From an uncultured Poribacteria bacterium (GTDB taxonomy: Bacteria; Poribacteria; WGA-4E; WGA-3G): a DNA stretch of 64,000 bases. The stretch covers positions 4,867,966 through 4,931,965 of the forward strand of contig OX638352.1 of the NCBI GenBank assembly GCA_951813545.1, written 5' to 3'. Both the position numbers and the translations under genes were made by a program. Within the stretch, counting starts at the first letter, position 1. Each line of letters opens with the position of its first letter. The notes below the pieces were generated by a model. The model did no database searches. It was not told the DNA's origin and saw only the letters and a program-made list of their open reading frames with translations. Positions 3,202-21,425 of this stretch are shown here, in pieces.

Positions 3202-3236
3202 GTGACAGGTTTTAGATATTAAAAGGTTGCATTATT
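3202..3236 (-). promoter_or_regulatory. Conserved ECF-type promoter motif, copy A (minus strand: AATAATGCAACC-N17-TGTCAC)
   Basis: A 36-bp motif shared by six loci in the window. It has an AAC-containing -35-like element, a 17-nt spacer and a CGTC-type -10, and sits about 35 nt upstream of the paralog A start. Confidence 0.45.
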
Positions 3237-3270
3237 TAACGATATTTTCAGAAAGAGGGTTTATGCCAAT

Positions 3271-3297
3271 AAAAAAGGCGCGCTTGGCAGCGCGCCT
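3271..3297 (-). terminator. Rho-independent terminator downstream of paralog B
   Basis: Minus strand reads GGCGCGCTGCCAAGCGCGCC followed by TTTTTT, a GC-rich hairpin with a U-tract. Confidence 0.6.
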
Positions 3298-3369
3298 ACG
3301 ATAATTTAATCACGTTGACAATGACCGCTATGCATCATAGCAAATCTAAACGTAACACAATCTATCCAG

Positions 3370-6300
3370 CTATTCATCAATTGTGAAACGTAGCACACCG
3401 CTGCTGGAAGTCCCGACATAAAGCACGTTGCCATCAACATCAAACGACAAGACGGTATCTGGGATTTCAGGTGTAACTCGTTTCCACGTGTCAGAATTTT
3501 CTTTCAACTGATACGCGTATTGTCCGGATGTCCCATATACCTTCGTGCCATCTACCACAATTTTTTCAATAACAAGTGGGCTGCCTTCACTGTCAACTGC
3601 CTCATGCCATTGGGTTCCATCACTTGAATAAGCGACCCCTTTATCGGTTGCCACATAAACAGTTGCTCCCGCGAAGGCAATTGCATTGAACTTCTCCACA
3701 GGAAACGGAAGATCTGCGGTGACATCGTTCCAAGTTTCGCCCTCATCAAATGATTGAGAGAGATGTCCATCTCGTTTTCCAACGTAAACGGTTTTATTTG
3801 CAACTGCGAGTTTGAAACCCATAGAATTATGAACATCACTAAAAAGAGAAGTACCCGCCGAATAGTCAAAAGGAGTGGACATTAAAGTCGAAATAAAGTT
3901 TTCGCCTTTATCTACTAAACCGGTGTTATACCAGGCATCCGTACCGGATTTCCATCTGAAGAGTCTCTGCTTGTGTTCAACATAATATGTTCCGCCGCTG
4001 ACAGAAAAATTTCCGAACATTGATGTCATAGCGGTTCCAAGTGACTCTAAGACCATCTGATTCGCTGCTTTACTTGCCTCCTCAATATCCTTAGTATCGA
4101 GAACTTCACCGTTCTCAAGGTCTTGCTTAGCTATATTCTTGAGTGCATCGCGTGCTGCCTTATCGTTTTTTCGGTTTAACCGATCCGTGAGTTCATTATT
4201 CAGAGGATCAACCTTTTCAAGAATCTTAGGGATCCCAGGAATAGGAATAAATTTGTCACCCTCTGTAGATAAACGTAGAATCTGAGGTTTTAGGACTGCC
4301 ATACCCTTCATGTAGAGCGCATCGTCAAATTTCCGAAAAACCGATATACCTGCCATAGGCGGCGCATCAACGGTAAATGGTGTCCAAGACTCACCACCGT
4401 CAGTTGAGGTGACAAGCCCGTCCATTTCAGAGGCGTAGAGTTTACCGTTAATGGAGAATAGATCCATAACGGTAGTCCCTGCGAGTCCTGTATTAAGTTG
4501 ATGCCAGGATTCGCCTGCGTCGGTCGTGCGATAGACTCCAGTTTGGCTGCCTCTGTAGAAGGTATCTGCGTCCAACATCACAATTGGTGGCGCTATATTG
4601 TTCATTCCAGCAGACCTATCCTTTAAATCTAAGGAGGTCCATGTCTCGCCAGCATTAACTGAATAGAAAAGTTCGCGTGGATGCGCTAACATAACTTTAG
4701 CACCAGACGTGATTATTTTGAAATTTGAATAGGTAAAATCAACAGGCGTTGAATTGGCACCCTGCGGGGGAAATAGAATTGAAAGCATACCCTTCGGCTT
4801 TCTCTCATTTTCCGTCTTTTTTTTCGGATTTATAGTATACCACGTATCACCTAAATCGGTTGAGCGATAAGCTGACCACCAGTTATCGCCTGTCATTATC
4901 GCTTTGCGTTGGGTGCCGATCTCATTTGTAAATTCCCAACCCGCGGCGACATAGAGACGGTGTTCAGAGGCTGCCAAGGCGTGGACGGTCAGTTTTTGCG
5001 CGCGTTTATCTGCAGTACCCACTGACAACCGTTCCCACGCCTCAGCATTGCGACGATAGAGACCGGTATCGGTACCGACAAACACAGTGTTTTCAACGGA
5101 GACGAGTCCCCGAATCTTCTCGGCTTCTAAGTCATCTTTCAATGATACCCACGCTGTCTGACCGTCTTCAGAAAAATATATATCTTCAATAAATGCAAGG
5201 AAAAAACCCGCGTCGGTGACTGCGAAACCCCTGGGAGCACCTTTTGAATGGTCGCCGAGCGAATTCCATGTCTCTCCAGCGTCTGTGGAAGCTAATACTT
5301 CTGTATCAGTAGCAAGATAGAGCATATCACCGTGCTCCGTCATCTGTATCCCACCCGCTATCCAATCTTGGCTAGCGAGTGCGCTGGCACTTCTTGCATT
5401 AACGAGTCTCCATGTGTGCGTATCGTCGGCGAGTTTATAGAGGCTGGTGGGTGTCCCTGCGTAAATATCACCGGAAGTTGCGGTGAAGAGACTGTTAACG
5501 AGACCGCCTTCCGGTCCCTTTGTTTGTATCCACTGTGGTTTCGGTGTTGAGATTTCGGATTCGTCAATTAGTGCTGCGGCGAAGAGCCGAGCGTCGGGTC
5601 TCTGACCTGCTCCCGGGCTCTTACCCGGAGTAGCCGAACTTCCCGCCTGATTTCGTACTGCAGGTTTCGCGGGTGAATCTAAGACAAAATCTGCCTCAAT
5701 GATCTCAACCGTCCGTTCCGATGTCGCATTCAAATCGTAAGGTTTCTGGAAGCGGGAGAGGTATTGTGTGCCAACACCCATCAGTAGGAAAATCAAGACA
5801 GCTGAGGCTGCTGATAATGCCCACGGCAACATAGGTTTATTCGTAGCAGGTGCTGTGGGAACGATACGCGAGACTTCTTGCATGATGGTCTCTGTTAAGT
5901 TAGCAGGCAGTTGGAAACTGCCGAGGTTTTGTCGGATCATGTCTTCCTCCTTCTTCAAACGGTTACGCGCGCGATTGAGGCGACTCTTCACAGTATTCGG
6001 GGAGACACCGAGGAACTCACTGATGGTTTTGATTGTCATCTCGCCGAGGTAATGGAGCGTCATCACTGTGCGTTCGCTCTCAGGCAGTTTTGGAGCAGTT
6101 TCTTGACGACTTCACGACGTGCCTCATCCGCTTCCGCCGCCTGCTTTCCTGCTATGTATCGAGAATATGACACTTGATTCACCTCGCTTGCCTCGGTAAC
6201 TTCCAAGGATTGCTCCGGCGGGGGATTCTTTCGGAGCCAGTCGAGACACAAGTTTGACGCGATGACATAAAGCCAGCCACCAAACGACTCATAACTTTTC

Positions 6301-6488
6301 AAGGTTCCGAGTTTCTGATATGCTTTGAGAAACGCGTCCTGTGTAATCTCTTGTGCGATGTGGAAGTCGCCAACTTTCCGCCACGCCAGCGCGTGAACCC
6401 CTTTCTGATATTTGTTGACCAACGGCGTAAATGCGTCCTGGTCACCCTCTAATATCCGTTGAATGAGTTCGGCATCTTTCCGTTCCAT
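3370..6488 (-). pseudogene. ECF sigma / TM / Asp-box beta-propeller fusion, paralog B, frameshifted
   Basis: ORF 6063..6488 encodes sigma region 2 and ORF 3370..6066 starts at region 4 (MMTLHYLGEMTIK...), overlapping by 4 nt. Against paralog A, a T5 run (cagtttttggagcag) is T4 here (6088-6091). The 1-nt loss truncates the sigma part before region 4. Confidence 0.5.
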
Positions 6489-6530: not shown

Positions 6531-6566
6531 GTGACGAATTCTGGGTATTGAAAGGTTGCATTATTT
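6531..6566 (-). promoter_or_regulatory. Conserved ECF-type promoter motif, copy B
   Basis: Minus strand reads AATAATGCAACC-tttcaatacccagaatt-CGTCAC, about 40 nt upstream of the paralog B start. Confidence 0.45.
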
Positions 6567-7582: not shown

Positions 7583-9013
7583 TCAAATATCAGAACGGAA
7601 GAATTTCAGAAACGCCATCGTCGTAAATGCTAACGCAAAAAAACCGAGTAAGAGGACATCCACCGCAGAGCGACGCAATGTGTCCGATAAAGAAGGCTCC
7701 GTCACGGTTGGCGGCGGTGGGATTTTGTCTGTTTCGGATTCAGAAGAATCATTCATCCGAGTCAATATCTGCATAGCCTGTGACATTGCATCGTCTGAAA
7801 CTTCGCTGAAATACGAGTCATCAAGTTGACCGTAGTACCGCTCACCCGTTTGGAAGTAGCCGTCCCTTTTCAATTTACCCGTTTGGGTTAGGTTTATAGC
7901 AATGTATGTCAGAGAGGACGTTGGCACGATCCGAGAAAGTGTCTCTCCGACATATTCTTGCCGCGCCTTCTCACGCTGATAGTCCCGGTCAATTTTGTCC
8001 GCTTGATCCTGGAACTCCTGTCGAAACTGTTCGTTAATCGGCTTTTTGAGTTTATCTATTCTTTCGTCGTCTGAGCGAATAGAGATACCTTCGCTACCTG
8101 CGAAAGTTTCTGTCATTTTTTTGAAAATTTTTTCATCCCTATCTTTCGTCAGGTTGTTGCGAAGTGCCGTTTTTTCCATATAAACCGCCTGCTGTGTCCG
8201 GGTAGGCGCAACGAGTTTAGCAACGACAAACGCGCCGCGTGGTGCGATCAGCACCGCAAATACCCAAAACGTAAAAGCGACAATCAGCGCAGTCTTGGCG
8301 TTATCCAGATAGGTTGAAATGAACACGCCTATCGCAAAAAACACAGCAATATAGAGCAACGAGATAAGCGTCAGACAAAACACGGGCAGCGCAATTTTGA
8401 GCTCACCTAACGGAAATCCCTGCCAAGTGATTAGGAGTAACCCTAACAGGAATGACACCAAAAACGGAACGACAAATACAATGTAGCCACCGATTAACTT
8501 GCTCCACAAGAACACATCTCGCGGAAGGGAGTTCGATAGATTTATCCGCAGCGTTCCTGCCTCTCGCTCCCCTGCCACAGCATCGAAAGTAAACAGAAGT
8601 GCCAGCAGACTGAAAACTGTCCCGACAATAAACAGGAAATCAAGATGTCCTAAGACATACGCAACGGATGCTTGAGAAACCCCTGCTGACCCTTGTCGGA
8701 CCCCATTACGCGTCATTCCAAGATAGGTCGGCAACGCATCCTCTAAACCGTTCGCAAACACGCTCAAAGGTGTAGGTTTAAGGAACAACTTGGAAACCTC
8801 TGTGTTCGGGTCCGACGCATTCGGTGGATTTTCTTTTGCCTCTGTCTGTTCGCGTTTAATCGACTCTTGGTAATCCACAAGGTTCTGGCTATACCTCCGA
8901 TAATTGATCGAAAGGGTGAGTGGCACAAGCAAGAGGCACATTAACAGCAGCGCGACAAACCGAACACTCAAAATGTGGTGCATAATTTCTTTCTGTATCA
9001 ATGTCATTAGCAT
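7583..9013 (-). CDS. ABC-2 family transporter permease-like membrane protein, paralog 1
   Basis: Topology is an N-terminal TM, a large loop, then a block of TMs. It has the ABC-2 permease signature AVAGEREAGTLR. A roughly 200-aa cytoplasmic extension ends in a final TM. No ATPase gene is adjacent. Confidence 0.55.
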   Translation of the reverse strand: MLMTLIQKEIMHHILSVRFVALLLMCLLLVPLTLSINYRRYSQNLVDYQESIKREQTEAKENPPNASDPNTEVSKLFLKPTPLSVFANGLEDALPTYLGMTRNGVRQGSAGVSQASVAYVLGHLDFLFIVGTVFSLLALLFTFDAVAGEREAGTLRINLSNSLPRDVFLWSKLIGGYIVFVVPFLVSFLLGLLLITWQGFPLGELKIALPVFCLTLISLLYIAVFFAIGVFISTYLDNAKTALIVAFTFWVFAVLIAPRGAFVVAKLVAPTRTQQAVYMEKTALRNNLTKDRDEKIFKKMTETFAGSEGISIRSDDERIDKLKKPINEQFRQEFQDQADKIDRDYQREKARQEYVGETLSRIVPTSSLTYIAINLTQTGKLKRDGYFQTGERYYGQLDDSYFSEVSDDAMSQAMQILTRMNDSSESETDKIPPPPTVTEPSLSDTLRRSAVDVLLLGFFALAFTTMAFLKFFRSDI

Positions 9014-9071
9014 GGTGATTTCTCCTCTGTTTTTTTGTTTAGATTTTACAATTACTTAGACATTTTAAAGA

Positions 9072-9220
9072 GGCGAGGATACAATCCTCGCCAGCAGTGA
9101 TGGAGGTTTTTACTTCTAAGGTTTCTGCTTAAAGAGGCGAGGATACAATCCTCGCCAGCAGTGATGGAGGTTTTTACTTCTAAGGTTTCTGCTTAAAGAG
9201 GCGAGGATACAATCCTCGCC
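9072..9220. repeat. Tandem repeat, 64-bp unit in about 2.9 copies, each carrying a family-1 REP hairpin (GGCGAGGATACAATCCTCGCC)
   Basis: The unit aaagaggcgaggatacaatcctcgccagcagtgatggaggtttttacttctaaggtttctgctt is repeated at 9067, 9131 and 9195. Confidence 0.85.
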
Positions 9221-9383
9221 AGCAGTGATGGAGGTTTTTACTTCTAAGGTTTTCCGCCCCTACGGGGAAACCTGGATTTTTTGTCCACGCGCTGCTATAA
9301 ACATGCTGAAGAAACACCCAACCAAATAAACCTTACAGGACTGAAGAAAGGGCTTAGGGTATACACGGTTTTTACCTAAGATC

Positions 9384-9420
9384 CGGTGCGGTTGCAAACC
9401 GCACCTACCGGACCTGGGAC
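9384..9420. repeat. Family-2 REP hairpin (CCGGTGCGGTTGCAAACCGCACCTACCGG)
   Basis: Near-identical copies at 29624-29660, 32698-32730 (variant) and 54683-54710. Confidence 0.75.
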
Positions 9421-9469
9421 CGAAGCTGTTCCTTTTCTAAAATTGACACTTATGGTGCAGTTTCCTAAC

Positions 9470-10944
9470 CGCACCATAGGTGTCAATTTAGGGATTTTCG
9501 GTAGCCTCTTTGAGTTTCCAAAAGGTTGTGTTTTTTCCAGTGCTTCTCTGGAAAGTGCCTCCATTTTCAAATGAACACCTTATGGTTTTCAAGGTTTCAC
9601 GAAGTGCTGTTTTTGAGCGATGAAAACTCAAGGTGAGGAGTCTGGCATAACCTGCGATATGCTTCGCTGTTTTGATGAAACTCTGTTGTATGTGTCGGTA
9701 TCCCGCGACTAACATGACGGCATGTTGGATCAGAAGGGCAATAAGTTTCGCATAGATTTCAGATAGCATACGATACGGTTTTTGACTTCGAGAAACATGA
9801 AGTTTTCCGATACTTTTGAAACACTTATACATCAGTTCAACCTGCCAACGGATACCGACAATGGCACAGACCTGTTTCGGTGTGAGTTGATGTTCTTCGG
9901 TATTGGTGATATAGAGGTTGTATCCAGCGAGCCGTAAGAGTGCTTTTGACGGTGTTTGGGCTTTACGTTTGGCACGGTATCGGATGGAGCGTCGGCGTTT
10001 ATTCGTTTCTGCTTCAGAAAGTTTCTCGGCGATGAGGTAAACACGGAGTTGCTTTCTTTTGCCGATCCGTAGCGTCTTACGGATGTAGGTGTTTTCTACT
10101 TCTGCTTTGAGCATCTTTCCTAAATCAATGCGTTCACCGTTTTCATCAGCGAGGTAAGAGTTGGCTTTCAAACGCGAAATCCAGTAGACGTCGTTTTCAG
10201 TGAGTTTTTCAAGTTCATCGAGCGAAAAATATGCTAAGTCTGCGAGTCGTAAACTCCGTTGTGGCAGTGGATCGGCTGCTTTTGCGGCGGTGCTGTCAGC
10301 CGTCATGCCATTAGTCAGTTGGAAGTCGTGAAACCTCCCCGTAAGGATATCAAAGCAGAGATGAAGTTTCAAAGCGGCTTTCTGCCGATGATTCTTTTTC
10401 GGTTGGCCCTTCCACGTCTCGTGGAGTTCATCGGGGAGTGTGATCCACGTGCTATCTTGAATGTAGACACCACTAAACTGCTGAAGTAAAGGCAGGGCTT
10501 CTCGCCGACCGGCAACTTCAAGCATTTCTGTAATCGCAGCGTCAAGTGTGAGTTTCAACATTTTAGCAGTTTCAGGGGTCAGACGTTGTTCAAGTGCTTG
10601 TCGGCTGACTTGTATGCCGAGCGTCGCAGCGGTTTCAGTAAGTTGCTGATAACTCGCCTCTGGGTTTTCCAACCAACCGAGGACGAGGATTTGCGCCAGC
10701 GCACTCCCGGTAAGTTTTCGCTTTCTCTTGACGAACCCTGTAGTGACAGCGACTTCATCTGCAACGGTTTCAAGGATCGTTTGCATTTTATCTGGCACTT
10801 GTTGTAAAATGGACATTGGAGATACCTCTTTTTTGTAGAAATAACCACTACTTTCTTTTCTACATTATACAAGAGGTATTTCCGATTTACACCTTTTTTC
10901 TTACAAGAAAAACATACTTATTTTCCCTAAATTGACACCTATGG
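9470..10944 (-). mobile_element. IS4-superfamily insertion sequence (~1.47 kb) with 23-bp terminal inverted repeats
   Basis: Left TIR gcaccataggtgtcaatttaggg (9470-9492) is the exact reverse complement of right TIR ccctaaattgacacctatggtgc (10922-10944). The element is flanked by a 12-bp direct repeat agtttcctaacc (9458-9469 and 10945-10956), consistent with a TSD. Confidence 0.7.
9488..10816 (-). CDS. DDE transposase, IS4 family
   Basis: 442 aa with a C-terminal R-(3)-E-(6)-K signature (GIRWQVELMYKCFK) typical of IS4-group transposases, lying between the TIRs. Confidence 0.7.
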   Translation of the reverse strand: MSILQQVPDKMQTILETVADEVAVTTGFVKRKRKLTGSALAQILVLGWLENPEASYQQLTETAATLGIQVSRQALEQRLTPETAKMLKLTLDAAITEMLEVAGRREALPLLQQFSGVYIQDSTWITLPDELHETWKGQPKKNHRQKAALKLHLCFDILTGRFHDFQLTNGMTADSTAAKAADPLPQRSLRLADLAYFSLDELEKLTENDVYWISRLKANSYLADENGERIDLGKMLKAEVENTYIRKTLRIGKRKQLRVYLIAEKLSEAETNKRRRSIRYRAKRKAQTPSKALLRLAGYNLYITNTEEHQLTPKQVCAIVGIRWQVELMYKCFKSIGKLHVSRSQKPYRMLSEIYAKLIALLIQHAVMLVAGYRHIQQSFIKTAKHIAGYARLLTLSFHRSKTALRETLKTIRCSFENGGTFQRSTGKNTTFWKLKEATENP

Positions 10945-11017
10945 TGCAGTTTCCTAACCGCACCTACCACGTCGGAATAGACATAATTCGCTGATTTTGC
11001 GTAAGTCCTGAATTGTA

Positions 11018-12448
11018 TTAAATATCGGAGCGGAAGAATTTTAGGAACGCCACCGTAGTCAATACCACTGCAAAAAAACAGAGCAATAGGAGGTCCACCA
11101 TTGATTGACGGAGCACCTCGCCTAAGGTCATAATTTCTAAAGAGGGTGGTTGTGTGATTGTAACGGTATCTTCTGCTCTCATCATTCTCATAGAGATACG
11201 ATCTACAACTTTGCTGAACCAATCCGTATCAAGCGCATCATAATAGCGATGACCCGCTTGAAAGTAATTGTCTCTTTTTGTTTTTCCGGTCTGGGTTAAA
11301 TTTGTTGTGAGATAGATGAGCGAAGATGTTGGTGTGATCCGGGAAAGCATTTCACCTACAGATTCTTGCCGCGCTTTGTCCCGTTTGTAACGTCGATCTA
11401 TTTCGTCAGCACTCTCCTTGAATTTCTGCCGAAATTCCTCCTCAACCGGTTGCACCTCTTTATCCACGTCACTGATGCCCCCAGCCATAGTGTTCGCTAT
11501 CTGTTCATCAAAGGAAGGCTGCTGACGATTTTTCCAGAATTCTTGGTATATCTTCGCTGTCTTTTCTTCAAGTTCTGCGTTGAAATTCTCACGGAGGGCA
11601 GTCTTTTCAAGATAGACACTCTGCGATGTTTGGGTCGGCGCGATGAATTTCGCTGCGAGGAACCCAACACGCGGTGTAATGAGTACGGCAAACACCCAAA
11701 TCGTAAATGCGATAATGAGTGCTGTCTTGGAATTATCTAAATAGGTAGAAATAACCGTTCCAATTGCGAAGAAAACCCCAATGTAGAGTAGCGAAACGAC
11801 AGTTAGACTCACCACCCGTGGAAAGATTTCGGACTCCCCAAGCGGAAAACCTTGCCAAACAAGCATCAGTAAACCCAATAGCAGTGATACCAAGAATGGA
11901 ACGACAAACACTAAGTAACCACCGATCAGCTTACTCCATAGGAAGAGGTCGCGCGGCAAGGAATTTGACAGGGTAATCCGAAGTGTTCCGGCTTCTCGTT
12001 CCCCAGCAACGGCATCAAAAGTAAACAGGAGTGCAAGCAAACTGAAAACAGTGCCGACAAGAAACAGAAAATCGAGATGTCCCAAAAGATAGGAAAGAGA
12101 ATCCGAAACCAAAACTGGAGCACCTTGTGTAATTCCATTGCGTGTCATTCCAAGATAACTTGGTAGGGCATCCCCTAATCCGTTCGCAAACACGCTCAGG
12201 GATGTCGGTTTGAGGAAAAGTTTGGAAACTTCCAACTCCGGCTTCAGTTCCATCTTCGGATTCATCTTTGCTTCCTCGATGTTTGCCAATTTAACGGCTT
12301 CTTGGTAATCAACAAGGTTCTGTTGATAATTTCGATAACCGATAGAAAGCGTAAGTGGAATAAGCAAAACACACATCAGCAAGAGCGCGACAAACCGGAC
12401 GCTGAGCACATGATGCATAATCTCTTTTTGAATCAATGTCATTAACAT
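11018..12448 (-). CDS. ABC-2 family transporter permease-like membrane protein, paralog 2
   Basis: About 70% identical to 7583..9013 and carries the same AVAGEREAGTLR motif. Start chosen at MLMTLIQ (ATG at 12446-12448, preceded by AGGAGA) rather than the longer ORF. Confidence 0.55.
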   Translation of the reverse strand: MLMTLIQKEIMHHVLSVRFVALLLMCVLLIPLTLSIGYRNYQQNLVDYQEAVKLANIEEAKMNPKMELKPELEVSKLFLKPTSLSVFANGLGDALPSYLGMTRNGITQGAPVLVSDSLSYLLGHLDFLFLVGTVFSLLALLFTFDAVAGEREAGTLRITLSNSLPRDLFLWSKLIGGYLVFVVPFLVSLLLGLLMLVWQGFPLGESEIFPRVVSLTVVSLLYIGVFFAIGTVISTYLDNSKTALIIAFTIWVFAVLITPRVGFLAAKFIAPTQTSQSVYLEKTALRENFNAELEEKTAKIYQEFWKNRQQPSFDEQIANTMAGGISDVDKEVQPVEEEFRQKFKESADEIDRRYKRDKARQESVGEMLSRITPTSSLIYLTTNLTQTGKTKRDNYFQAGHRYYDALDTDWFSKVVDRISMRMMRAEDTVTITQPPSLEIMTLGEVLRQSMVDLLLLCFFAVVLTTVAFLKFFRSDI

Positions 12449-12702
12449 GTCTATTTCTCCTCTGTTTTTTTCTTCCATGAACCGTTCACGCTTGTGGAAC
12501 AGTGGTTGTATATTGTAATCCAAGTTGCTACCTATAAGATTTTATAGTAGATATTAGAATTAATGAGACACTCCGAAATAGTGTAAAGGTCCGTTGGCGG
12601 TATTCATACGCACGCAGGAAACCAACAGCCTACGCTACAAATATGTTCACTTATTTATGGGTTTTACTATAGTTGTGAGGTTTACAGCGGTTTTATTACG
12701 GA

Positions 12703-12723
12703 GGCGAGGATTGTATCCTCGCC
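12703..12723. repeat. Family-1 REP hairpin (GGCGAGGATTGTATCCTCGCC)
   Basis: A member of the dispersed GGCGAGG-N4-8-CCTCGCC family. Other copies: 9072, 9136, 9200, 20907, 23628, 27782, 44866, 49135-49629, 54588 and 57910. Confidence 0.8.
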
Positions 12724-12752
12724 AACGGAGTTCGGAAAGGTGGAATAGAACA

Positions 12753-13985
12753 TCAAGGAGACATCAACACCGATAGCTGCTTAAGGATGTCCTGCCCCTC
12801 TTCCGTCTTAAGGAATTCTTCCCCAAGGTGCGATTGTAGTTGCGACTGTAGTTTTTCCTTAATCTGACCTCTCACCTGCACGGTCACTTGTTGGAGGATA
12901 TCCATACCCATTTGTGTCTCGAGAATACCCTTTCCAAATTGTGCTTCCAGCTCCGGTTTAGCTTGTTCAAGGATACTAACCTCCATGCGATTAAATATCT
13001 TAGGCAAGTGCTTGAATACCAACGTCTCAGTCGCTGCCTTAATTTCCCCTCTGACCGTTTGTGTCTTGAGAAAATTCTCTCCGTGTTGCGACCGTAAGTC
13101 ACGTAAAAAGTCAGATAAGGCAGAAAACTCTGTCTTGTTGCTATTATAGATAGTTCTTTGCGGTCCGTTTCGATAGAGTTTCCCAGTAACACTTAAGTTA
13201 AGGCGATGATGTTCACACCGAACGATGGGAGTCATATCACCTTCCTGCATCCACAGCGTTTCCTGATCCGCTTTTTTAGAAGGACGCATCTCATAGAGAT
13301 AACTACACGGCAGCGTTGGATCCGATGCATCGTCGGTGAGAACGCCGGGAGTTCCTACTGTTGGGTCTGCTGGGCAGAGGAGCACTTTCTTCTCCAAGTA
13401 TTCCGTGGAAAGTTCGGAAAGCCATTGCGGATCTGTATCTGCATTGGAAGCGCGATAGTTGTCCCGTGCCAGTTTTATCTGTCGCAAATTTTCTCTGCAT
13501 GCCGCAATCCCTTTAGAATGCTCAGCGTCCTGTGCAAGTTCATAAGGATAAGCAGCCGCCAAGAGGGATCGGTTTAGGCGAATCAACGCTTCTCCACTTT
13601 TCGGATTTTGGGCAATGCGTGTCTGCGTCTCTTCACTGAGTTCAATATCAGCGAACACTTGTGCATCATAGAGAGGACCCGCTTGAAGCAGCTGATTCAG
13701 ATCTGATAGCAGTGCCTTCTGCAGCTTCGGAGACGGATCGCTTGCGCCATCGTACCCAACTAACAGCCACTGTATATCTTCAGACAATTGCGATGCAATG
13801 AATTTCGACACCGGTGCGCGCGTGTCTTCGAGTTTCACCGCCAAACTGCCCGGATCTTTAATCGCATCCATAGTAAAGAGAAACTGATTTGTTCCTGCAT
13901 GGAGGGGCAGTTGTAGGCACATAGCCATCAGCACAGTGACGAATAGAAGTGTTATTGGCTTGGATCGTTCAATCGTTTTTAACAT
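12753..13985 (-). CDS. Secreted hypothetical protein with N-terminal signal peptide
   Basis: The N-terminus MLKTIERSKPITLLFVTVLMAMCLQLPLHAG looks like a signal peptide. No recognisable domain. It lies between sigma paralog C and permease 2. Confidence 0.45.
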   Translation of the reverse strand: MLKTIERSKPITLLFVTVLMAMCLQLPLHAGTNQFLFTMDAIKDPGSLAVKLEDTRAPVSKFIASQLSEDIQWLLVGYDGASDPSPKLQKALLSDLNQLLQAGPLYDAQVFADIELSEETQTRIAQNPKSGEALIRLNRSLLAAAYPYELAQDAEHSKGIAACRENLRQIKLARDNYRASNADTDPQWLSELSTEYLEKKVLLCPADPTVGTPGVLTDDASDPTLPCSYLYEMRPSKKADQETLWMQEGDMTPIVRCEHHRLNLSVTGKLYRNGPQRTIYNSNKTEFSALSDFLRDLRSQHGENFLKTQTVRGEIKAATETLVFKHLPKIFNRMEVSILEQAKPELEAQFGKGILETQMGMDILQQVTVQVRGQIKEKLQSQLQSHLGEEFLKTEEGQDILKQLSVLMSP

Positions 13986-14099: not shown

Positions 14100-17000
14100 T
14101 TAGTCGGCTTCATCAATTATGAAACGTAGCACGCCGTGCCCAGGTGTCCCAACATAAAGTGTGTTGCCATCAACAGTAAGAGAACTAATCTCGCTCGGAA
14201 CTTCCGGTGTGACCTGTTTTGCTATGCTTGAATTCTCTTTCAATTGATATATCTGTTGCTCAGTTGCACCGTATACCGTTGTGCCGTCCACTGCCATTTT
14301 TTCTATGACAAGCGGTGTGCCTTCCGCATCGGTTGCCGTGTACCAGCGGATCCCATCGCTTGAATACGTAACACCTTTATCGGTTGCCACGTAAAGCGTT
14401 GGTCCGGCGAAGGCGATAGCCTTGAATTGGGTGACAGAAAACGGGAGGTCTGTCGTGACATCGTTCCAAGTGTCTCCTTCATCAAACGACTGAAGGAGGT
14501 GTCCATCCCGTTTGCCAACGTAAACAGTTTTACCTGAAACTGCGATTTTGAAATCAAGGGAACCCTGATCTTCAATGCCAGCGAAAGAATGAATAGACTC
14601 CCCTTCATCTGCTAAGCCAGTATTGAACCATTCAGTCATACCGGGCTTCCACCTGAAGAGTTGCTGGTTATACTCCATATAGTAAGTACTACCGCTGACA
14701 GCGAAACTCCCGAAATATGCCTGAATCATTTTAACGAGACCTTCCTCTATAGTCTCATTAGCAACTGTGCTAAGTAGATCCATATCGAAATCTTCAGGTT
14801 TTAATCCCGGACTTTCCTCAATGTTTTCCTGAAGTTCATCTTGTACGGGTTCCGGAAGGGCGTTTTTGAATGTTTCAACGATCAGTTTTTCAAGGTCTAT
14901 CCCCTCTACACTTGGCATTTCAGGGACAGGTACTAACCCGTCATCCTCAGCAGATACGCGGAAAAGTTGCGGCAATGTCCCGTTGACACCTTTGACATAG
15001 AGAATATCGTTAAATTCCATCATACCCGTGAGAGTTTCAGGACAATGTAAAACAGGTGTCCACGATTCACCATCATCAAACGAGACCACAAGTTTTCCCC
15101 ATGTTTTTGCGTAGAGCGTATTATTGGCATAGACCAACTTGTCTACACCCGTCCTCACCAATCCAGTGTTAAACGGATGCCACGTTTTGCCTGCATCGGT
15201 CGTGCGCTGAATCCCTAATGGGCTACTACTTTTGTAAAAGGTGTTCACATCCGCTATGACAGCGGTGGGAGTGCCTCCTATAGCTGCCGCTACGACACGG
15301 GTGGAAGGACCTGCTATAGTTGCGGCACCTGGACCTAAAGATATCCATGTTTCCCCGGCATCACTTGAGTAATAACTCTCATCGCCATATACGACTAAAA
15401 GTCTTTCTTGCGCTGCCACCATTTTGACGCTGGCAGTCTTTTCCGTTTCTGAGTTGTCATCCACTTTTGGGTTGTCAGTTCCAACGGTAAAAATAAATCC
15501 ATCGCTTTCCACGGAAACTGTTTTTGGGAAATCTATCGCTTGCCACGAATCTCCGAGGTCTGTTGAACGGTAAAGCGACGGAGAGGTATTAAATACCGAC
15601 ATTGACACGGAGGTCGCAAGTTTCTTATTTTCAATCTCCTCTCCGACGGCAACATAGAGTCGGTGTTCAGCACTTGCCAATGCGAGAATATTCTCGGTTT
15701 CACCTACGGGTAATTGCTCCCAGCCTTCCGAACTGTGGCGATAAAGCCCTTTATCCGTTCCAACAAAGAGAGTATCTGCAATAGCGGCGATTGCCTGAAT
15801 TTTCCTATCGGTTAGGTTTTCGTCGGTAAGAGATGTCCACGATTTACCGGCATCCACAGAGCGGAATACGCCATCAACAAGCCCCAAGTACATTGTAATG
15901 TTGGCTTGCGCCCCAAGGGCATCATCCGTTATGATAGTGCCAATTAATTGCCCTTCTGGACGTGTTCCCAATGAATTCCATGTTCTCCCTCTATCTGCGG
16001 AAGCAAGTACTTCGGTATCGGAAAAGATATAGAGGGTATCCTCATGTTCTGTTATTTGCCACGATTCATTAATAGACATGTTCGTATTAGCGGGTATCCA
16101 TGTGCTTCTATCGTCCGTTAATCTATAGAGGTCCGCGCCAGCTCTGGCATAAACGTCGCCGTTAGATGCCATGAAGAGGTTATTGACTACTCCCCCTTCG
16201 GGGCCCTTCGCTTGTGTCCATTGGGTCTTCGGTGTTGAGACTTCTGCCGTATCGACTGGCAGTGTGGCAAAAAGCGATTCGTCGGATCTCTGACCTGCGC
16301 CTGGACTTTTGCCAGGGATAGCCGAGCTTCCTGCCTGACTCCGAACTGCTGGCTTTGCTGGAGAGTCCACAACAAAAACCGCATCAATAAGCTCAACCGT
16401 CGGTTCCGAGGTGGCACTCAGATTGTAGGGTTTTTGAAAGCGGGAGAGATACTGCGTGCCAACACCCATCATTAAGAAAATCAAGATAGCGGAGGCAGCA
16501 GAGATTGCTAAGGGTGCGACCGGTTTACTCACAGCAGGTGGAACGGGTGCTATACGTGAAACTTCCTGCATAATGTTATCCGCTAAGTTATCAGGGAGTT
16601 GGAAGCTGCCGAGGTTCTGCTGAATTACGTCTTCCTCTTTCCGCAAACGGTTGCGTGCGCGGCTGAGGCGGCTTTTGACGGTATTCTGGGAGACACCGAG
16701 GAACTCACTGATGGCTTTGATTGTCATTTCACCGAGGTAATGGAGCGTCATCACCGTCCGTTCGCTTTCCGGTAATTTCTTGAGCAGCTCCTTGACGACC
16801 TCGCGGCGCGTTTCGTCGGCTTCGGCTTCCTGTTTTTCTGCTACATATTGAGAATATGACACTTTGTCCACCTCGTTTGAATCGGCAGTATCAAGGGATT
16901 CCATGGGTATGCGGTTTTTTCGGAGCCAATCAAGGCACTCGCGGGCTACGATAACGTAAAGCCATCCGCTAAACGCGTTAGGGTCCTTCAATGTCCGTAG

Positions 17001-17177
17001 TTGCCGGTACGCCTTGAGAAACGCGTCCTGCGTAAGTTCTTGGGCGATGTGAAAATCACCGATTTTCCGCCACGCCAGCGCGTGAACCCCTTTTTGATAT
17101 TTCTTGACTAAGGGACTGAACGCTTCCTGGTTCCCTTGCAATACCTGCTGAATGAGTTGCGCATCGCTCTGTTGCAT
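14100..17177 (-). CDS. ECF sigma / TM / Asp-box beta-propeller fusion, paralog C
   Basis: Same architecture as paralog A: region 2 LAWRKIGDFHIAQELTQDAFLKAY, region 4 HTH, a TM segment, and Asp-box repeats such as SADRGRTW, SVDAGKSW, STDLGDSW, TTDAGKTW, FDDGESW and FDEGDTW. Confidence 0.75.
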   Translation of the reverse strand: MQQSDAQLIQQVLQGNQEAFSPLVKKYQKGVHALAWRKIGDFHIAQELTQDAFLKAYRQLRTLKDPNAFSGWLYVIVARECLDWLRKNRIPMESLDTADSNEVDKVSYSQYVAEKQEAEADETRREVVKELLKKLPESERTVMTLHYLGEMTIKAISEFLGVSQNTVKSRLSRARNRLRKEEDVIQQNLGSFQLPDNLADNIMQEVSRIAPVPPAVSKPVAPLAISAASAILIFLMMGVGTQYLSRFQKPYNLSATSEPTVELIDAVFVVDSPAKPAVRSQAGSSAIPGKSPGAGQRSDESLFATLPVDTAEVSTPKTQWTQAKGPEGGVVNNLFMASNGDVYARAGADLYRLTDDRSTWIPANTNMSINESWQITEHEDTLYIFSDTEVLASADRGRTWNSLGTRPEGQLIGTIITDDALGAQANITMYLGLVDGVFRSVDAGKSWTSLTDENLTDRKIQAIAAIADTLFVGTDKGLYRHSSEGWEQLPVGETENILALASAEHRLYVAVGEEIENKKLATSVSMSVFNTSPSLYRSTDLGDSWQAIDFPKTVSVESDGFIFTVGTDNPKVDDNSETEKTASVKMVAAQERLLVVYGDESYYSSDAGETWISLGPGAATIAGPSTRVVAAAIGGTPTAVIADVNTFYKSSSPLGIQRTTDAGKTWHPFNTGLVRTGVDKLVYANNTLYAKTWGKLVVSFDDGESWTPVLHCPETLTGMMEFNDILYVKGVNGTLPQLFRVSAEDDGLVPVPEMPSVEGIDLEKLIVETFKNALPEPVQDELQENIEESPGLKPEDFDMDLLSTVANETIEEGLVKMIQAYFGSFAVSGSTYYMEYNQQLFRWKPGMTEWFNTGLADEGESIHSFAGIEDQGSLDFKIAVSGKTVYVGKRDGHLLQSFDEGDTWNDVTTDLPFSVTQFKAIAFAGPTLYVATDKGVTYSSDGIRWYTATDAEGTPLVIEKMAVDGTTVYGATEQQIYQLKENSSIAKQVTPEVPSEISSLTVDGNTLYVGTPGHGVLRFIIDEAD

Positions 17178-17216: not shown

Positions 17217-17252
17217 GTGACGTAACTTAGATTTCAAAAGGTTGCATTATTT
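17217..17252 (-). promoter_or_regulatory. Conserved ECF-type promoter motif, copy C
   Basis: Minus strand reads AATAATGCAACC-ttttgaaatctaagtta-CGTCAC, 40 nt upstream of the paralog C start. Confidence 0.45.
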
Positions 17253-17339: not shown

Positions 17340-17513
17340 TTAATTTTTCACGAGTTTATGGGATGTTTCAGAAGGCGCTTCCCAAGATGTATTGTCTACA
17401 TGATGCACCGGTAGTTCAGCGTTAACTCCAGTTTCAATGCTGCCGAAAGCAAGATAACCAATGCCGAAGAATAATAAAATGACAAGGAATAGATTAATCA
17501 TTAGAAAGCGCAT
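17340..17513 (-). CDS. Small membrane protein (57 aa) downstream of promoter motif copy D
   Basis: Start taken at MRFLMINLFLVILLFFGIGYLAFG, preceded by AAAGGAGAA. It has a single TM. Confidence 0.3.
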   Translation of the reverse strand: MRFLMINLFLVILLFFGIGYLAFGSIETGVNAELPVHHVDNTSWEAPSETSHKLVKN

Positions 17514-17591: not shown

Positions 17592-17627
17592 GTGACGTAA
17601 CTTAGATTTCAAAAGGTTGCATTATTT
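17592..17627 (-). promoter_or_regulatory. Conserved ECF-type promoter motif, copy D
   Basis: Identical core (gtgacgtaacttagatttcaaaaggttgcattatttt) to copy C. Confidence 0.4.
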
Positions 17628-17694
17628 TCAAAAAGGTGGAGAATCAACCGCTCGTGTAAACATTTTTCCGTAATCGTCACATTCATTGATTAGA

Positions 17695-17730
17695 GTGACG
17701 TAACTTAGATTTTAAAAGGTTGCATTATTT
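17695..17730 (-). promoter_or_regulatory. Conserved ECF-type promoter motif, copy E
   Basis: Tandem second copy about 100 bp upstream of copy D. Confidence 0.35.
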
Positions 17731-18135: not shown

Positions 18136-18260
18136 GATGATTTAAAATAAAATAGGGGTGGTTTTACCACCCCTATTTAACATTTCACGGGCATTCAGGC
18201 GTGAAGCCCCCTGCTTTAGCAGTGGGAGGAAAGCCTGCTAACCCATTGTGTCAAAAAAAC

Positions 18261-18385: not shown

Positions 18386-19648
18386 ATGCATTTAACATTT
18401 AGATACCGTGTGTATCCGACGCAAACGCAGGCAACCACATTATTAGCGTGGTTTGACCACTTGTGTGAACTCCAGAACGCTGCGCGCAACAATCGCAAGT
18501 TCGCCCATGAGACAGAAGGTCGTTTCGTCACGCACAATGAGCAAGAGAAACTTTTGAAGGTTGCGCGTGAGAAGTATGACGATTTCCGTGAAGTGCCTCA
18601 AGACTTTCAAGTTTCTATCCTCAAACGCGTTGAGAAAGCCTTTGATGCGTTCCGTAGGCGTTGTAAGGAAGGTGCGGCGAAAAAAGGGTATCCTCGCTAC
18701 AAAAGGCGTGTCCGTTCTCTAACGTGGTGCTTGCGAAAGCACAAACGCAAAACAGGTGAACGTATCCGCCAAAATCCGATAATAGCAACCGATTTTAGGC
18801 ACAATCGCTTAAAAGTGCCAAAGTTAGGCGAAGTCAAAATCTACATGCACCGACCCTTACAAGGTGACCCGAAAGAAGTCACGATCGTCAAGAAAGCCAG
18901 CGGTTGGTATGCTCATATCTCTTCTGAGATACCGGATATGCCGAAAGTTGAACCGACAGATGCTATCGCAGTTGATGTCGGCGCGACCCACTACCTGACC
19001 ACCTCTGAAGGTGAAAAAGAAGACAATCCGCGTTGGTATCGTCAAGCAGAAGGTTTGCTCCGAAAACACTCTAAAGACCTTTCTCGAAAGAAAAAAGGTA
19101 GCAACCGTAGAAAGAAACAACAACACAAACTCGCTTTACACCATGAACGGACGACAAACAAACGCAAAGACTTTATCGGTAAACTCGTTTACAAACTCTA
19201 CCACCATCAGAAAAACAATGTATTAGTGGCAGAAGATTTACGCGTATCTAACATGGTAAAGAACCAACACCTCAGCAAGAGCATTTCCGATGCGTCTTGG
19301 GCAACCTTCTTTAAGTGGTGTGCTGACATAGCCGAAAGAGACGGTCTGCATTTCCACCAAGTTGACCCCAAGAACACTTCGCAAACTTGCTCCGCTTGTG
19401 GTGAGAAATCGCAAAAGAAACTCTCTTTGGCGATTCGCACCTTTGAGTGTCAGTTTTGTGGCACTTCGTTAGACAGAGACCACAACGCTGCTATAAACAT
19501 ACTTCTTAGGGCAGCTGCGGCCCTTCGTGGAGAGCGGTGGGTTTCCACCCTCTATGAAGCGAGAAACAAGAACGAAGCACAAGACGAAGGCTTGCTGAAC
19601 GCAACACAACTTTTGTTGTTTGACGCCATCACAAGCCCAAGTCTTTAG
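18386..19648 (+). CDS. tnpB: TnpB (IS605/IS1341-family OrfB) RNA-guided nuclease-like protein
   Basis: The N-terminus FRYRVYPTQTQATTLLAWFDHLCELQNAARN is typical of TnpB. It has a RuvC-like core and a C-terminal zinc finger CSACGEK...CQFCG. No tnpA is adjacent. Confidence 0.85.
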   Translation: MHLTFRYRVYPTQTQATTLLAWFDHLCELQNAARNNRKFAHETEGRFVTHNEQEKLLKVAREKYDDFREVPQDFQVSILKRVEKAFDAFRRRCKEGAAKKGYPRYKRRVRSLTWCLRKHKRKTGERIRQNPIIATDFRHNRLKVPKLGEVKIYMHRPLQGDPKEVTIVKKASGWYAHISSEIPDMPKVEPTDAIAVDVGATHYLTTSEGEKEDNPRWYRQAEGLLRKHSKDLSRKKKGSNRRKKQQHKLALHHERTTNKRKDFIGKLVYKLYHHQKNNVLVAEDLRVSNMVKNQHLSKSISDASWATFFKWCADIAERDGLHFHQVDPKNTSQTCSACGEKSQKKLSLAIRTFECQFCGTSLDRDHNAAINILLRAAAALRGERWVSTLYEARNKNEAQDEGLLNATQLLLFDAITSPSL

Positions 19649-19714: not shown

Positions 19715-20755
19715 TTAGTTCTTTGAAACCTTGATGGCTCCCCACGTCACAGCCATCTTATCTAAAGGTTCCACCGGCAGCGAATCACCAACCCACCGAG
19801 GCGAAGTCGGCACACTATCCGACAAAACCACTAAACGCCGAACTTGCTGCGACCCAAGCGAATAGATGTAGAGACCATTATTACCAAAACCTATATCCGC
19901 AGAAAAGACAAGATATTTGCCATTCGGCGACCAATCTACTTGAAAGAACTCCCGCAAACCACGATTGGCTATTTCCAAGTGGTTTATCCCATCAGCATTC
20001 ACAATAAATATGCCTTCATGAAGGTGAGTGACCACGGGGCGAGGGTGCCTCCCATCAACATCGGCAACAAATACACCTTCATGAACAGGGGTGTAGGCTA
20101 TCTTCTTACCGTCCGGGGAGAACGCATAGAACGGGTAACGGTCTAAGAAACCCGCACGTTCAGGGAATGGCGAGTGTTTCTTCGGTTTCTCCTGTCCATT
20201 GACATTCGACTCCCAGATCTCCTGATGCCTGTCCGTTGAAGTGAGATTGTAGAACACGGATTGCGCATCTGGTGCCCAGACGAAACCTATTGGATTCTTA
20301 CCAATGGGGTGGAGTAACTTTCGCTTCCGTCGTCCATCCGGCGAAATTAGAAAGATTTCTGTGTTCACATCGCGTCCACCTCTTATCCTTTGCGGACTGC
20401 CAGCATACACAATCCAACGTCCATCTGGAGACCAAGAAATATCGACATAAGAATGGACTTGCAAGATGATGGACCGAATTCTCTTACCGGTGCGAAGGTC
20501 TCGGATATGGAGAACATTACGGCGGTCCGGGTCGCCATCGACCGCTGCCAAAAAGCGACCATCCGGCGAAGGCGTAGAAATACCTTCATCCGCAATGCGC
20601 GTAGGTGTAGGGACGGTATCATTGGGACGTATCATGTAGGTCGTGCTACGATAGGAGTAGACAATCATACCTTCTGCCCAACAGAGCAGATTCGGGCAAA
20701 CACCCGATAGAAGCATTATTACCGAAAACAGAAAAGTCAAGCGATACGTGTTCAT
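19715..20755 (-). CDS. Secreted PD40/TolB-like beta-propeller repeat protein
   Basis: Has a signal peptide (MNTYRLTFLFSVIMLLSGV) and repeated SPDG/WSPDG motifs such as FSPDGKKIAY and WSPDGRWIVY. Confidence 0.6.
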   Translation of the reverse strand: MNTYRLTFLFSVIMLLSGVCPNLLCWAEGMIVYSYRSTTYMIRPNDTVPTPTRIADEGISTPSPDGRFLAAVDGDPDRRNVLHIRDLRTGKRIRSIILQVHSYVDISWSPDGRWIVYAGSPQRIRGGRDVNTEIFLISPDGRRKRKLLHPIGKNPIGFVWAPDAQSVFYNLTSTDRHQEIWESNVNGQEKPKKHSPFPERAGFLDRYPFYAFSPDGKKIAYTPVHEGVFVADVDGRHPRPVVTHLHEGIFIVNADGINHLEIANRGLREFFQVDWSPNGKYLVFSADIGFGNNGLYIYSLGSQQVRRLVVLSDSVPTSPRWVGDSLPVEPLDKMAVTWGAIKVSKN

Positions 20756-20966
20756 TAGGAAGCCCTTATTTCAAAAATAGCTGCACGAAGAGTCAAGGTT
20801 AAGGTACACTGTTATACTTACAATTCATTATCGTGCTAACTGAAAAGCGTTTAGATTTATAGGACTTACGCAAGTTTCTGGTAAGCCTTTAGGTCCGCCC
20901 ACTGCTGGCGAGGTTTAAAACCTCGCCAGCAAAGCGGGCAGCGTAAGTTCAGACCAAATTTGGGTT

Positions 20967-21308
20967 TTAAGCGGATAGCCCTGAAACTGCAGCAGTCTCG
21001 TTGTCGAAACGTTCAAAGAGACTCACGAGTCGGCTCATAATAATCAAATTATTGATCTGTTTGCTGATATTGATGACCCCGACACGACCTTTTTTCCGCG
21101 CCACAGCTGCACGTGCTCCCATGAGCACACCAAGTCCTGTGCTGTCAACCCTATTGACGTGCGCGAAATTGATGAGGATGCGGGGTGTATCGGAAGCCTC
21201 TATCTGTGACGAGATCGCTTCCCATAATTCTGATGTTGAGGGTCCCATTATTTTTCCGTTTGGTTCCAAAATCGTGATTCCATTTTGTTGGCGTATTTTA
21301 GTGGTCAT
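20967..21308 (-). CDS. STAS-domain anti-sigma factor antagonist (SpoIIAA-like)
   Basis: 113 aa with a STAS-like pattern (ITILEPNGKIMG...INFAHVNRVDSTGLGVLMGA). Confidence 0.65.
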   Translation of the reverse strand: MTTKIRQQNGITILEPNGKIMGPSTSELWEAISSQIEASDTPRILINFAHVNRVDSTGLGVLMGARAAVARKKGRVGVINISKQINNLIIMSRLVSLFERFDNETAAVSGLSA

Positions 21309-21389
21309 GATTTATTCCTTTAAAACGAGTGGAAGTTTCGTTTGGTTTACAAGAGGTAACTTAGTGAAATTTAACATCCGTTGATTATA

Positions 21390-21425
21390 GTGACGCAACT
21401 TAGATCTCAAAAGGTTGCATTATTT
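21390..21425 (-). promoter_or_regulatory. Conserved ECF-type promoter motif, copy F, upstream of the STAS gene
   Basis: Minus strand reads AATAATGCAACC-ttttgagatctaagttg-CGTCAC, about 80 nt upstream of the STAS gene start at 21308. Confidence 0.4.

Follow-up and report, generated by a model that had tools for sequence, protein, structure and literature searches.

A conserved motif of Poribacteria as the probable ECF-type promoter of sensor-fused sigma factors and of a small envelope-oriented regulon

The 64-kb stretch of DNA from an uncultured Poribacteria bacterium analysed here (contig OX638352.1, positions 4,867,966 to 4,931,965; hereafter the window) carries a short, almost invariant motif at six sites of its minus strand, three of them upstream of large genes that encode sigma factors fused to membrane and propeller domains. 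This raises the question of whether the motif is a promoter, which protein reads it, and which genes it controls. An initial annotation had proposed a promoter of the extracytoplasmic function (ECF) type, autoregulation by the fused sigma factors, and a small regulon including a STAS-domain gene. According to our analysis, the motif is most probably an ECF-type promoter read by the fused Poribacteria sigma factors, and, as judged from comparative sequence evidence, it defines an autoregulated small envelope-oriented regulon and is not a mobile repeat.

The 64-kb window was searched on both strands for AATAATGCAACC-N17-YGTCAC with up to two mismatches, and exactly six matches were obtained, all on the minus strand and all with 0 mismatches; in 100 dinucleotide-preserving shuffles, the mean number of matches per shuffle was 0.00. 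The six annotated copies were thus all recovered, and the target genes listed for them are correct by coordinates and domain content. The repeated element itself is real, but its true length is 35 nt, not the 36 bp first given. A looser pattern (GCAACC-N17-YGTC, one mismatch) gave 13 matches in 64 kb against 5.9 expected, the extras being at chance level with no additional convincing site. The conserved block extends further than the annotated motif, roughly as AAAATAATGCAACCTTT...tAAg...CGTCACy..AATcAA...g. When the six regions were aligned, the likeness began abruptly about 8 nt before the motif (TTTTGAAAATAATGC...) and faded about 20 nt past CGTCAC, and the flanks showed no relatedness beyond ~55 nt. 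All six copies are intergenic and on the sense strand relative to the next gene, 38-42 nt from the start codon of the sigma genes and 78-81 nt from that of a 57-aa open reading frame (ORF) and of the STAS gene. At none of the six sites is there an overlapping sigma-70-like consensus (TTGACA-N17-TATAAT-like) on the minus strand. The combination of AAC plus a T-tract at -35, CGTC at -10, sense-strand orientation and fixed distances, with no sigma-70 consensus, bears out the proposed ECF type; a T-tract after AAC is typical of ECF -35 elements. The whole window gave no match in Rfam at gathering thresholds, which means that the sites and leaders are free of known RNA elements, and no tRNAs were found in the window.

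The three fused sigma paralogs (A, B, and C) each comprise ~1000 aa with Sigma70_r2 and Sigma70_r4_2 domains, one hydrophobic helix, and a long propeller region. The single transmembrane (TM) helix is located at ~aa 222-243 and the beta-propeller region at ~aa 330 to 1020, where Pfam recognizes BNR/Sortilin-Vps10/Ycf48-type repeats. The sigma core passed the ECF superfamily model of NCBIfam (TIGR02937, 99.6 bits against a cutoff of 42.9), and Pfam detected no Sigma70 r3 or r1 domain in the fusions; by their sequence, with sigma2 and sigma4 only, these proteins are classified as ECF (group 4) sigma factors. The best named model for the sigma core was SigW, and since this and the other equivalog scores were far below their cutoffs, the fusion is not an ortholog of any named ECF. 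A sequence search of the PDB with the sensor domain gave one weak match only (3b7f, E=0.0015), so that a fold search was needed to identify the outer domain. Foldseek matched it to GH74 enzymes (2cn3_A, E=3e-20, TM-score ~0.53 over the target) and, more distantly, to the periplasmic sensor domains BT4663 and BT4673 of Bacteroides hybrid two-component systems. GH74 xyloglucanases are tandem seven-bladed propellers.

Homologs of sigma C at 60-95% identity are very numerous, and every named one belongs to Candidatus Poribacteria; the fused sigma family appears to be restricted to this phylum and present in multiple copies. A literature search for Poribacteria together with sigma factor or BNR gave no paper with a relevant title, and neither BNR nor propeller extensions are named in the main text of the paper that reclassified the ECFs (PMC7826278); the family may nevertheless have been classified before. 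The part of the protein that would read DNA is far better conserved than the part that would sense: sigma4 of paralogs A, B, and C is 88-95% identical, and the outer domain 50-56%. Among 56 homologs, 14 of the 18 positions of the sigma4 recognition helix (GVSxNTVKSRLSRARNRL) are invariant, the others being either at least 90% conserved or variable; a small-residue stretch, (L)A.SAASA, is conserved at the start of the TM helix and would be compatible with a protease site or with helix packing; and no cysteine occurs among the invariant or nearly invariant columns. The ~40-residue linker between sigma4 and the TM helix gave no Pfam match to an anti-sigma domain (ZAS, FecR-like) and contains no Cys/His motif. 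A separate anti-sigma gene was not found either, no anti-sigma Pfam domain being present in the window neighbors or in the called genes of five related loci (L001-L003, L122-L123), and the fused TM extension takes the place of a co-encoded anti-sigma factor. Docking of the linker on the sigma domains as a mini anti-sigma was considered with an AlphaFold model (56 sequences), in which the propeller region is confident and residues 182-316 have a predicted local distance difference test score (pLDDT) below 50, too low a confidence for docking to be judged.

A genome-wide search had been suggested as a check in the initial annotation. In 185,579 genomes, one per bacterial species (596 Gb), at least 117 stretches matched the exact motif. 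Among the matches listed, 102 stretches come from Poribacteria or from metagenome-assembled genomes labelled 'uncultured bacterium' (at least 59 genomes), and 15 come from other phyla, a number close to a rough chance estimate for 18 specified bases in 596 Gb. Of the latter, 14 are contained in open frames of 100 codons or more, and no gene follows downstream of 13. At the Poribacteria sites the median open frame across the motif is 32 codons, and an open frame of at least 100 codons spans 7 of the 143 sites, leaving 136 without one. Every site near a recognizable gene is on the sense strand, i.e., the orientation bias is complete.

According to Pfam identities, the first same-strand gene at 137 Poribacteria-type sites among the matches listed is most often a sigma fusion (66 sites, median 41 nt to the start codon) or the small TM ORF (30 sites, 81 nt), followed by lipoprotein-like proteins (8 sites, 100.5 nt), STAS (7 sites, 78 nt), ABC (ATP-binding cassette) ATPases (6 sites, 177 nt), unclassified genes (6 sites, 107 nt), AhpC/TSA thioredoxin-like proteins with an N-terminal helix as in the small ORF (4 sites, 78 nt), Reg_prop propellers (3 sites, 40 nt), acidic TM proteins (2 sites, 157 nt), PD40 (1 site, 81 nt), and MoxR (1 site, 183 nt), with no gene found downstream at 3 sites. 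The regulon membership proposed earlier, STAS included, agrees with this list, and the regulon proves broader than the window shows. The opposite case, a mobile repeat found mostly in non-promoter contexts, is not what was observed, as the sites are intergenic, sense-oriented, and unrelated in their flanks beyond ~55 nt.

The information content of 92 non-redundant sites indicates constraint from about -45 to +20 and nothing beyond, and the TTT after AACC is conserved there though it was not forced by the search pattern. Around the predicted transcript start, +4 to +18 past CGTCAC, AATcAA..G is conserved even before unrelated genes, and AATCAAyGGATGTTAAATTT is frequent before the small ORF and STAS. 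Possible reasons for this conservation are a preference in the initial transcribed region, a site for a second regulator, or a common origin. A conserved leader RNA was also considered and was dropped, because RNAalifold found no consensus structure (energy 0.0) across 29 non-redundant leaders of 66-105 nt.

Protein identity alone served to collect the loci L001-L004 and L122-L125, independently of the motif; their sigma factors are 60-91% identical to sigma C. The synteny of these loci is kept, in the order of PhyH, then STAS and/or the small ORF, the sigma fusion, a ~410-aa protein, ABC-2 permeases, and further sigma fusions. When six of them (L001-L003, L122-L124) were scanned at a threshold of at least 15 of 18 matches, all 18 sites obtained were on the gene strand, and the genes behind them are sigma fusions, the small ORF, STAS, a TonB-dependent receptor (L003), and a LamG-like protein (L123). 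The spacer drifts between lineages (TTTTGAAATCTAAGTTA vs. TTTCGGTACCCAAGTGT) whereas ATGCAAC and GTC are fixed, and the natural variants of the motif include GCAACT, AGTCAC, TGTCAC, CGTCAT, and CGTCCC. Promoter copy A of the window, for example, has the TGTCAC variant, which recurs with the same spacer type before sigma genes in seven further loci (L028, L077, L059, L010, L094, L115, L066).

The motif precedes nearly every sigma-TM-propeller paralog or ortholog examined in Poribacteria. Of 100 sigma N-termini in the collected loci, 78 are preceded within 450 nt by a site of at least 16/18, all 78 with sigma domains sharing 62% identity or more with that of sigma C. Closely related sigma genes that have no such site are few and lie further downstream of a motif, in an operon-like arrangement in L003/L004, L043, and L099, and the ECF genes of lower identity in these loci are without the motif. 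A second ECF-type motif, ATGCA(C/A)GTTTT-N13-CGTCTTTAAT (CGTCTT at the -10 side), is related but distinct; it was found in the collected loci in 12 copies with an intergenic-looking Poribacteria context (L008, L016, L021, L073, L074, L110, L114), plus one probable chance match, and nowhere in the window. The gene behind it in L074, L114, and L021 encodes a different ECF fusion of ~585-598 aa, consisting of a sigma core and a soluble extension, whose sigma domain is ~47-52% identical; in these loci, the gene of this second-class fusion directly follows a unit of motif, small ORF, STAS, and terminator. A promoter variant would be expected to accompany each sigma variant in this way if every sigma recognized the promoter ahead of its own gene. 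According to previous studies, ECFs usually autoregulate, and their promoters have been predicted on this principle (PMC7826278). The autoregulation proposed in the initial annotation thus gains comparative support, both from the motif before nearly every fused paralog and from the different motif of a neighboring ECF fusion.

On this basis, the full-length sigma fusion would be tethered to the membrane with its sigma domain held inactive, and a signal at the GH74-like double propeller, perhaps a glycan as guessed from the fold, would lead to the sigma domain being set free. With the sigma2/sigma4 domain of any paralog bound, RNA polymerase would then recognize the -35 box ATGCAACC(TTT) and the -10 box CGTCAC and start transcription ~6-8 nt past CGTC, with positive feedback and cross-regulation on all paralogs. 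Given near-identical DNA-reading domains and divergent outer domains among the paralogs, several sensors probably feed one promoter class. The predicted regulon would include, in the window, the small membrane peptide, STAS with the PD40 propeller, and probably the ABC-2 exporter genes behind sigma C, and, in other genomes, ABC ATPase, thioredoxin-like proteins, Reg_prop propellers, lipoproteins, TonB-dependent receptor, and MoxR. Release by regulated proteolysis, by analogy with IutY and as proposed for ECF52, is a tentative suggestion that we put at somewhat under an even chance; a sigma factor that is tethered yet active is also possible.

Several points weigh against the motif being a promoter read by the fused sigma factors. 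The transcription start and the sigma dependence are inferred from sequence, and, with 18 nt from AAC to CGTC, the spacing is rather long compared with the model ECF promoters of SigW and RpoE. Since the exact motif was the search pattern for the large site collection, the invariance of the 18 forced bases in it is circular, and only the protein-derived loci and near-miss sites escape this selection. As the pLDDT of residues 182-316 is so low, the model lends no structural support to any activation mechanism. Moreover, plain ECF sigma factors are present in these genomes as candidate readers (L003, 20844..21443), and the conservation to ~+20 (AATcAA..G) could mark an additional regulator site or a duplication origin. 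The motif might accordingly be a genuine ECF-type promoter whose reader is another sigma factor, e.g., a plain unfused ECF, with the fused sigma genes as targets only. This alternative draws on the plain ECF genes in the same neighborhoods and on the fact that the fused sigma is linked to the motif by sequence comparison. We consider it unlikely, however, because the motif stands before nearly every fused paralog and is missing before other ECF genes of the same loci, because it occurs essentially only in Poribacteria among the matches listed, as do all named top homologs of the fused sigma, and because the mostly invariant sigma4 recognition helix is in step with the invariant -35 element while a related fused ECF has a distinct motif of its own.

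The same block could instead be an operator for a DNA-binding regulator, or a promoter with an overlapping operator that would explain the +1 to +20 part. Conservation past the -10 box into AATcAA..G and of the spacer part tAAg would be accommodated in this way, but the block has no dyad or direct-repeat symmetry, two short invariant boxes are set at promoter-like spacing with a drifting spacer between them, and the orientation is strictly that of the downstream gene at a fixed distance to its start codon, which makes an operator very unlikely. It is barely credible that the copies are a functionless dispersed or duplicated repeat, such as a promoter-less cassette, a leftover of gene duplication, or an element like a miniature inverted-repeat transposable element. 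Tandem copies ~103 nt apart do recur, paralogs A, B, and C are clearly products of duplication, and insertion sequence elements (a TnpB-type ORF and DDE transposases) are present in the region. Yet the sites precede genes as unrelated as STAS, ABC ATPase, MoxR, thioredoxin-like, and TonB-dependent receptor genes, their flanks have nothing in common beyond ~55 nt, and inspection of the sites and flanks revealed no terminal inverted repeats, though no dedicated repeat search was run. The complete orientation bias, the scarcity of long open frames across the sites (136 of 143 without one), and the fixed start-codon spacing likewise speak against a repeat, as does the preservation of the boxes while spacers diverge across at least 59 species-level genomes.

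An extension of the promoter reading, which we regard as rather unlikely, is that phylum-specific one-component membrane-tethered sigma factors without an anti-sigma domain, whose propeller sensors possibly read glycans of the host or matrix, converge on one promoter, and that the small TM peptide and a kinase-less STAS protein control sigma release or activity. The small TM peptide and STAS would, as part of this rather unlikely extension, be the two most constant co-regulated products. If true, this would be a so far undescribed mode of sigma control, in which transcription occurs in the tethered state without cleavage or release is gated by STAS.

The STAS gene behind promoter copy F encodes a STAS-only protein with a Pfam STAS score of 49.7 bits (cutoff 22.6) and a TIGR00377 score of 52.7, just below the cutoff of 53.45. 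It aligns to SpoIIAA (1auz, 1th8) with vDStGLGVL opposite mDSsGLGVI, and the serine of this DS(S/T)G motif is presumably the phosphorylatable serine of SpoIIAA-type proteins. Its gene lies either directly behind the motif or behind the small ORF, and by this recurrence it is a true conserved member of the predicted motif-controlled set. The STAS-PD40 pair was found in L103 as well, and the PD40 gene is probably co-transcribed with STAS, judging from the gene arrangement. Because the regulon includes ABC components, a role as an MlaB-type ABC accessory was considered; this is less likely, the MlaB model giving 24 bits against a cutoff of 90 and the SpoIIAA-type models ~50 bits. Neither an RsbW/SpoIIAB-type kinase (HATPase_c) nor a PP2C phosphatase was present among the window ORFs scanned or the called genes of L001-L003 and L122-L123, so that the partner-switching cross-talk hinted at in the initial annotation is unproven; such genes could lie elsewhere in the genome. 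That STAS adjoins genes of ECF fusions in two distinct types of locus is no more than suggestive. The view that a STAS protein under ECF control is unusual was overstated, since the Bordetella btr locus precedes it (PMC7498569).

In the window, the STAS-PD40 unit is separated from the tandem promoters of the small ORF by an inserted TnpB/IS605 OrfB-type ORF (18386-19648, plus strand; OrfB_IS605 with a Cas12f1-like TNB domain), whereas STAS and the small ORF are adjacent in L001. A 36-bp tandem repeat (17971-18050, 2.2 copies) lies beside the inserted ORF.

The small ORF has a conserved 24-residue TM helix (MRFLMINL..GIGYLAFG), which together with the segment W.ASFETFHKL behind it matches the N-terminus of AhpC/TSA thioredoxin-like proteins of 462-468 aa that also sit behind the motif. 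Across the window (17340-17513) and L022, L083, L103, L073, L032, L052, and L064, a 283-aa protein had only the TM helix in common with the 57-aa ORF, and in some genomes the small ORF ends right behind the helix. This likeness and the early stops suggest that the small ORF may be a conserved fragment-derived micro-protein. The tandem arrangement of its promoters is widespread in Poribacteria genomes, with copies 102-108 nt apart, mostly 102-104 (window 17592-17729, L001 8677/8780, L030, L048, L072, L075, L088, L103, L111, L112, L119), and the genes behind these pairs are sigma genes, STAS, or the small ORF. Between the two copies of a pair, the sequence resembles the sigma-gene leader (GACGTAATnATT..GGAG). 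A terminator-like hairpin upstream of the tandem copies (Table 1) would shield them from upstream transcription.

Table 1. Coordinates of promoter copies, genes, and terminator-like hairpins in the window
Feature	Coordinates	Strand	Description
Promoter copy A	3202..3236	-	AATAATGCAACC-N17-TGTCAC; 38 nt before ATG of sigma paralog A
Promoter copy B	6531..6565	-	42 nt before sigma paralog B (start 6488)
Promoter copy C	17217..17251	-	39 nt before sigma paralog C (start 17177)
Promoter copy D	17592..17626	-	78 nt before 57-aa ORF
Promoter copy E	17695..17729	-	tandem with copy D, 103 nt further upstream
Promoter copy F	21390..21424	-	81 nt before STAS gene
Sigma paralog A	32..3163	-	1043 aa; ECF sigma2 + sigma4, one TM helix, BNR/Sortilin-type propeller region
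Sigma paralog B	3370..6488	-	frameshifted at ~6066; two ORFs
Sigma paralog C	14100..17177	-	1025 aa; ECF sigma2 + sigma4, ~40-aa linker, one TM helix, GH74-like double beta-propeller
Small membrane ORF	17340..17513	-	57 aa; conserved N-terminal TM helix (MRFLMINLFLV..GIGYLAFG); AAAGGAG ribosome-binding site
STAS-only protein	20967..21308	-	113 aa; SpoIIAA/RsbV-like, DSTG motif; behind promoter F
PD40 (TolB-like) beta-propeller protein	19715..20755	-	346 aa; downstream of STAS
Secreted-looking protein	12753..13985	-	410 aa; downstream of sigma C, without own motif
ABC-2 permease	11018..12523	-	downstream of sigma C, without own motif
ABC-2 permease	7583..9013	-	downstream of sigma C, without own motif
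DDE transposase (DDE_Tnp_1)	9488..10816	-	insertion that splits the two ABC-2 permease genes
Intrinsic-terminator-like hairpin	3276..3297	-	AGGCGCGCT-GCCA-AGCGCGCCT + T-run; between paralog B stop and promoter A
Terminator-like hairpin	18150..18178	-	13 pairs; upstream of tandem promoters D/E

In sigma paralog B, a one-base frameshift in an A-run (A4; minus strand CTCCAAAACTGCCTGAG) inside the sigma2-sigma4 linker separates the sigma2 part (141 aa, 6063..6488) from the sigma4-TM-propeller part (898 aa, 3370..6066). The counterpart of this gene in L001 (19829..22939) is called intact, and the frameshift reflects either a sequencing error in the homopolymer or a pseudogene of very recent origin.

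The genes behind sigma C (7583..13985) keep their order in L001-L003 and L122-L123 and, as far as gene order indicates, are possibly co-transcribed with it. The ~410-430-aa protein among them has a signal-peptide-like N-terminus, is always found between the sigma C ortholog and the ABC-2 permeases, and gave no match with Pfam or NCBIfam. The two permease genes are contiguous in L002, in contrast to the window, and a perfect 64-bp tandem repeat (2.9 copies, 9065-9252) adjoins the transposase that separates them. Elsewhere in the window we also identified a CRISPR array of ~10 kb (35100-44900, repeat GTTTCTATTCCATACTGGTTCGATTAAAAG, period 65-66) and, adjoining it, a type I cas set on the minus strand (44934-54540), including Cas1, Cas3, Cas5, Cas7/DevR-like, a CXXC_CXXC large subunit, and Cas6.

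The system can be compared with several known ones. Like the autoregulated ECFs SigW of B. subtilis (the best-scoring named model) and RpoE of E. coli, the Poribacteria sigma has sigma2 and sigma4 only, and its predicted promoter, with AAC and a T-tract at -35 and CGTC at -10, stands before its own gene and a small set of envelope genes. Unlike SigW and RpoE, it has no separate anti-sigma gene and is itself a membrane protein of ~1000 aa, and several paralogs use one promoter class. Previous studies showed that a separate anti-sigma gene is common in ECFs but not obligatory, and that fused anti-sigma-like TM extensions exist in IutY of Pseudomonas putida (ECF243), SCO4117 (ECF52), and ECF48/53; release of the sigma by proteolysis with Prc and RseP has been shown for IutY and proposed for ECF52 (PMC8999054). 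The Poribacteria fusions resemble these proteins in combining a cytoplasmic sigma, a TM helix, and an extracytoplasmic sensor in one polypeptide with no anti-sigma partner gene. They differ from IutY and ECF52 in the ~40-residue linker, in which no ZAS or FecR-type domain was detected, in a sensor that is a GH74-like double beta-propeller and not a FecR-type or carbohydrate-binding module, and in a family that appears phylum-restricted and multi-copy; proteolysis would be assumed here by analogy.

ECF57 and ECF01-Gob of Planctomycetes carry C-terminal extensions with WD40-like repeats (PMC8999054, PMC5766207). These share with the Poribacteria proteins an ECF core with a very long C-terminal propeller-repeat extension and an origin in an uncultured or PVC-neighboring (Planctomycetes, Verrucomicrobia, Chlamydiae) lineage, whereas the Poribacteria propellers are of the BNR/Sortilin/GH74 type, not WD40, and the two conserved cysteines that bridge sigma2 and sigma4 in ECF57 are absent from the Poribacteria sigmas. 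A glycan-binding fold as the transmembrane input is also known from Bacteroides hybrid two-component sensors (BT4663, for heparin/heparan sulphate), and the fold is that of GH74 xyloglucanases; in Poribacteria the output is a sigma domain and not a kinase plus regulator, and the identity is only 10-14%; a glycan ligand for the double propeller is a guess by analogy. In the Bordetella btr locus, the ECF sigma BtrS works with the partner switchers BtrU/W/V (PMC7498569, PMC8256260). The likeness consists in an ECF system associated with a STAS-only protein bearing a conserved phosphorylatable serine; the difference is that the locus of Bordetella also encodes the kinase BtrW and the phosphatase BtrU, and none was found in the window ORFs scanned or the syntenic called genes of Poribacteria. 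Autoregulated ECF promoters with a small regulon are textbook knowledge, and ECFs fused to TM sensor extensions are a recognized class. What would set the Poribacteria system apart, on the sequences compared here, is the GH74-like double-propeller sensor, the lack of a recognizable anti-sigma domain, the sharing of one promoter class by paralogs, and the restriction to a phylum of sponge symbionts.

Because Poribacteria are uncultured, to our knowledge nothing is known experimentally about their gene regulation, for which the present work provides a precise candidate promoter of phylum-wide occurrence and a defined predicted regulon. The sensor-sigma fusion family lends itself to tests in a heterologous host, where the sigma domain and the 35-nt promoter could act as an orthogonal switch. 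Since the outer fold is that of GH74 enzymes and of Bacteroides glycan sensors, the family is a candidate, if speculative, route for sensing the sponge host or its matrix. It also offers a natural example of many sensors feeding into one promoter and, as a membrane-tethered sigma without a recognizable anti-sigma domain, a useful case for studying the activation of such proteins.

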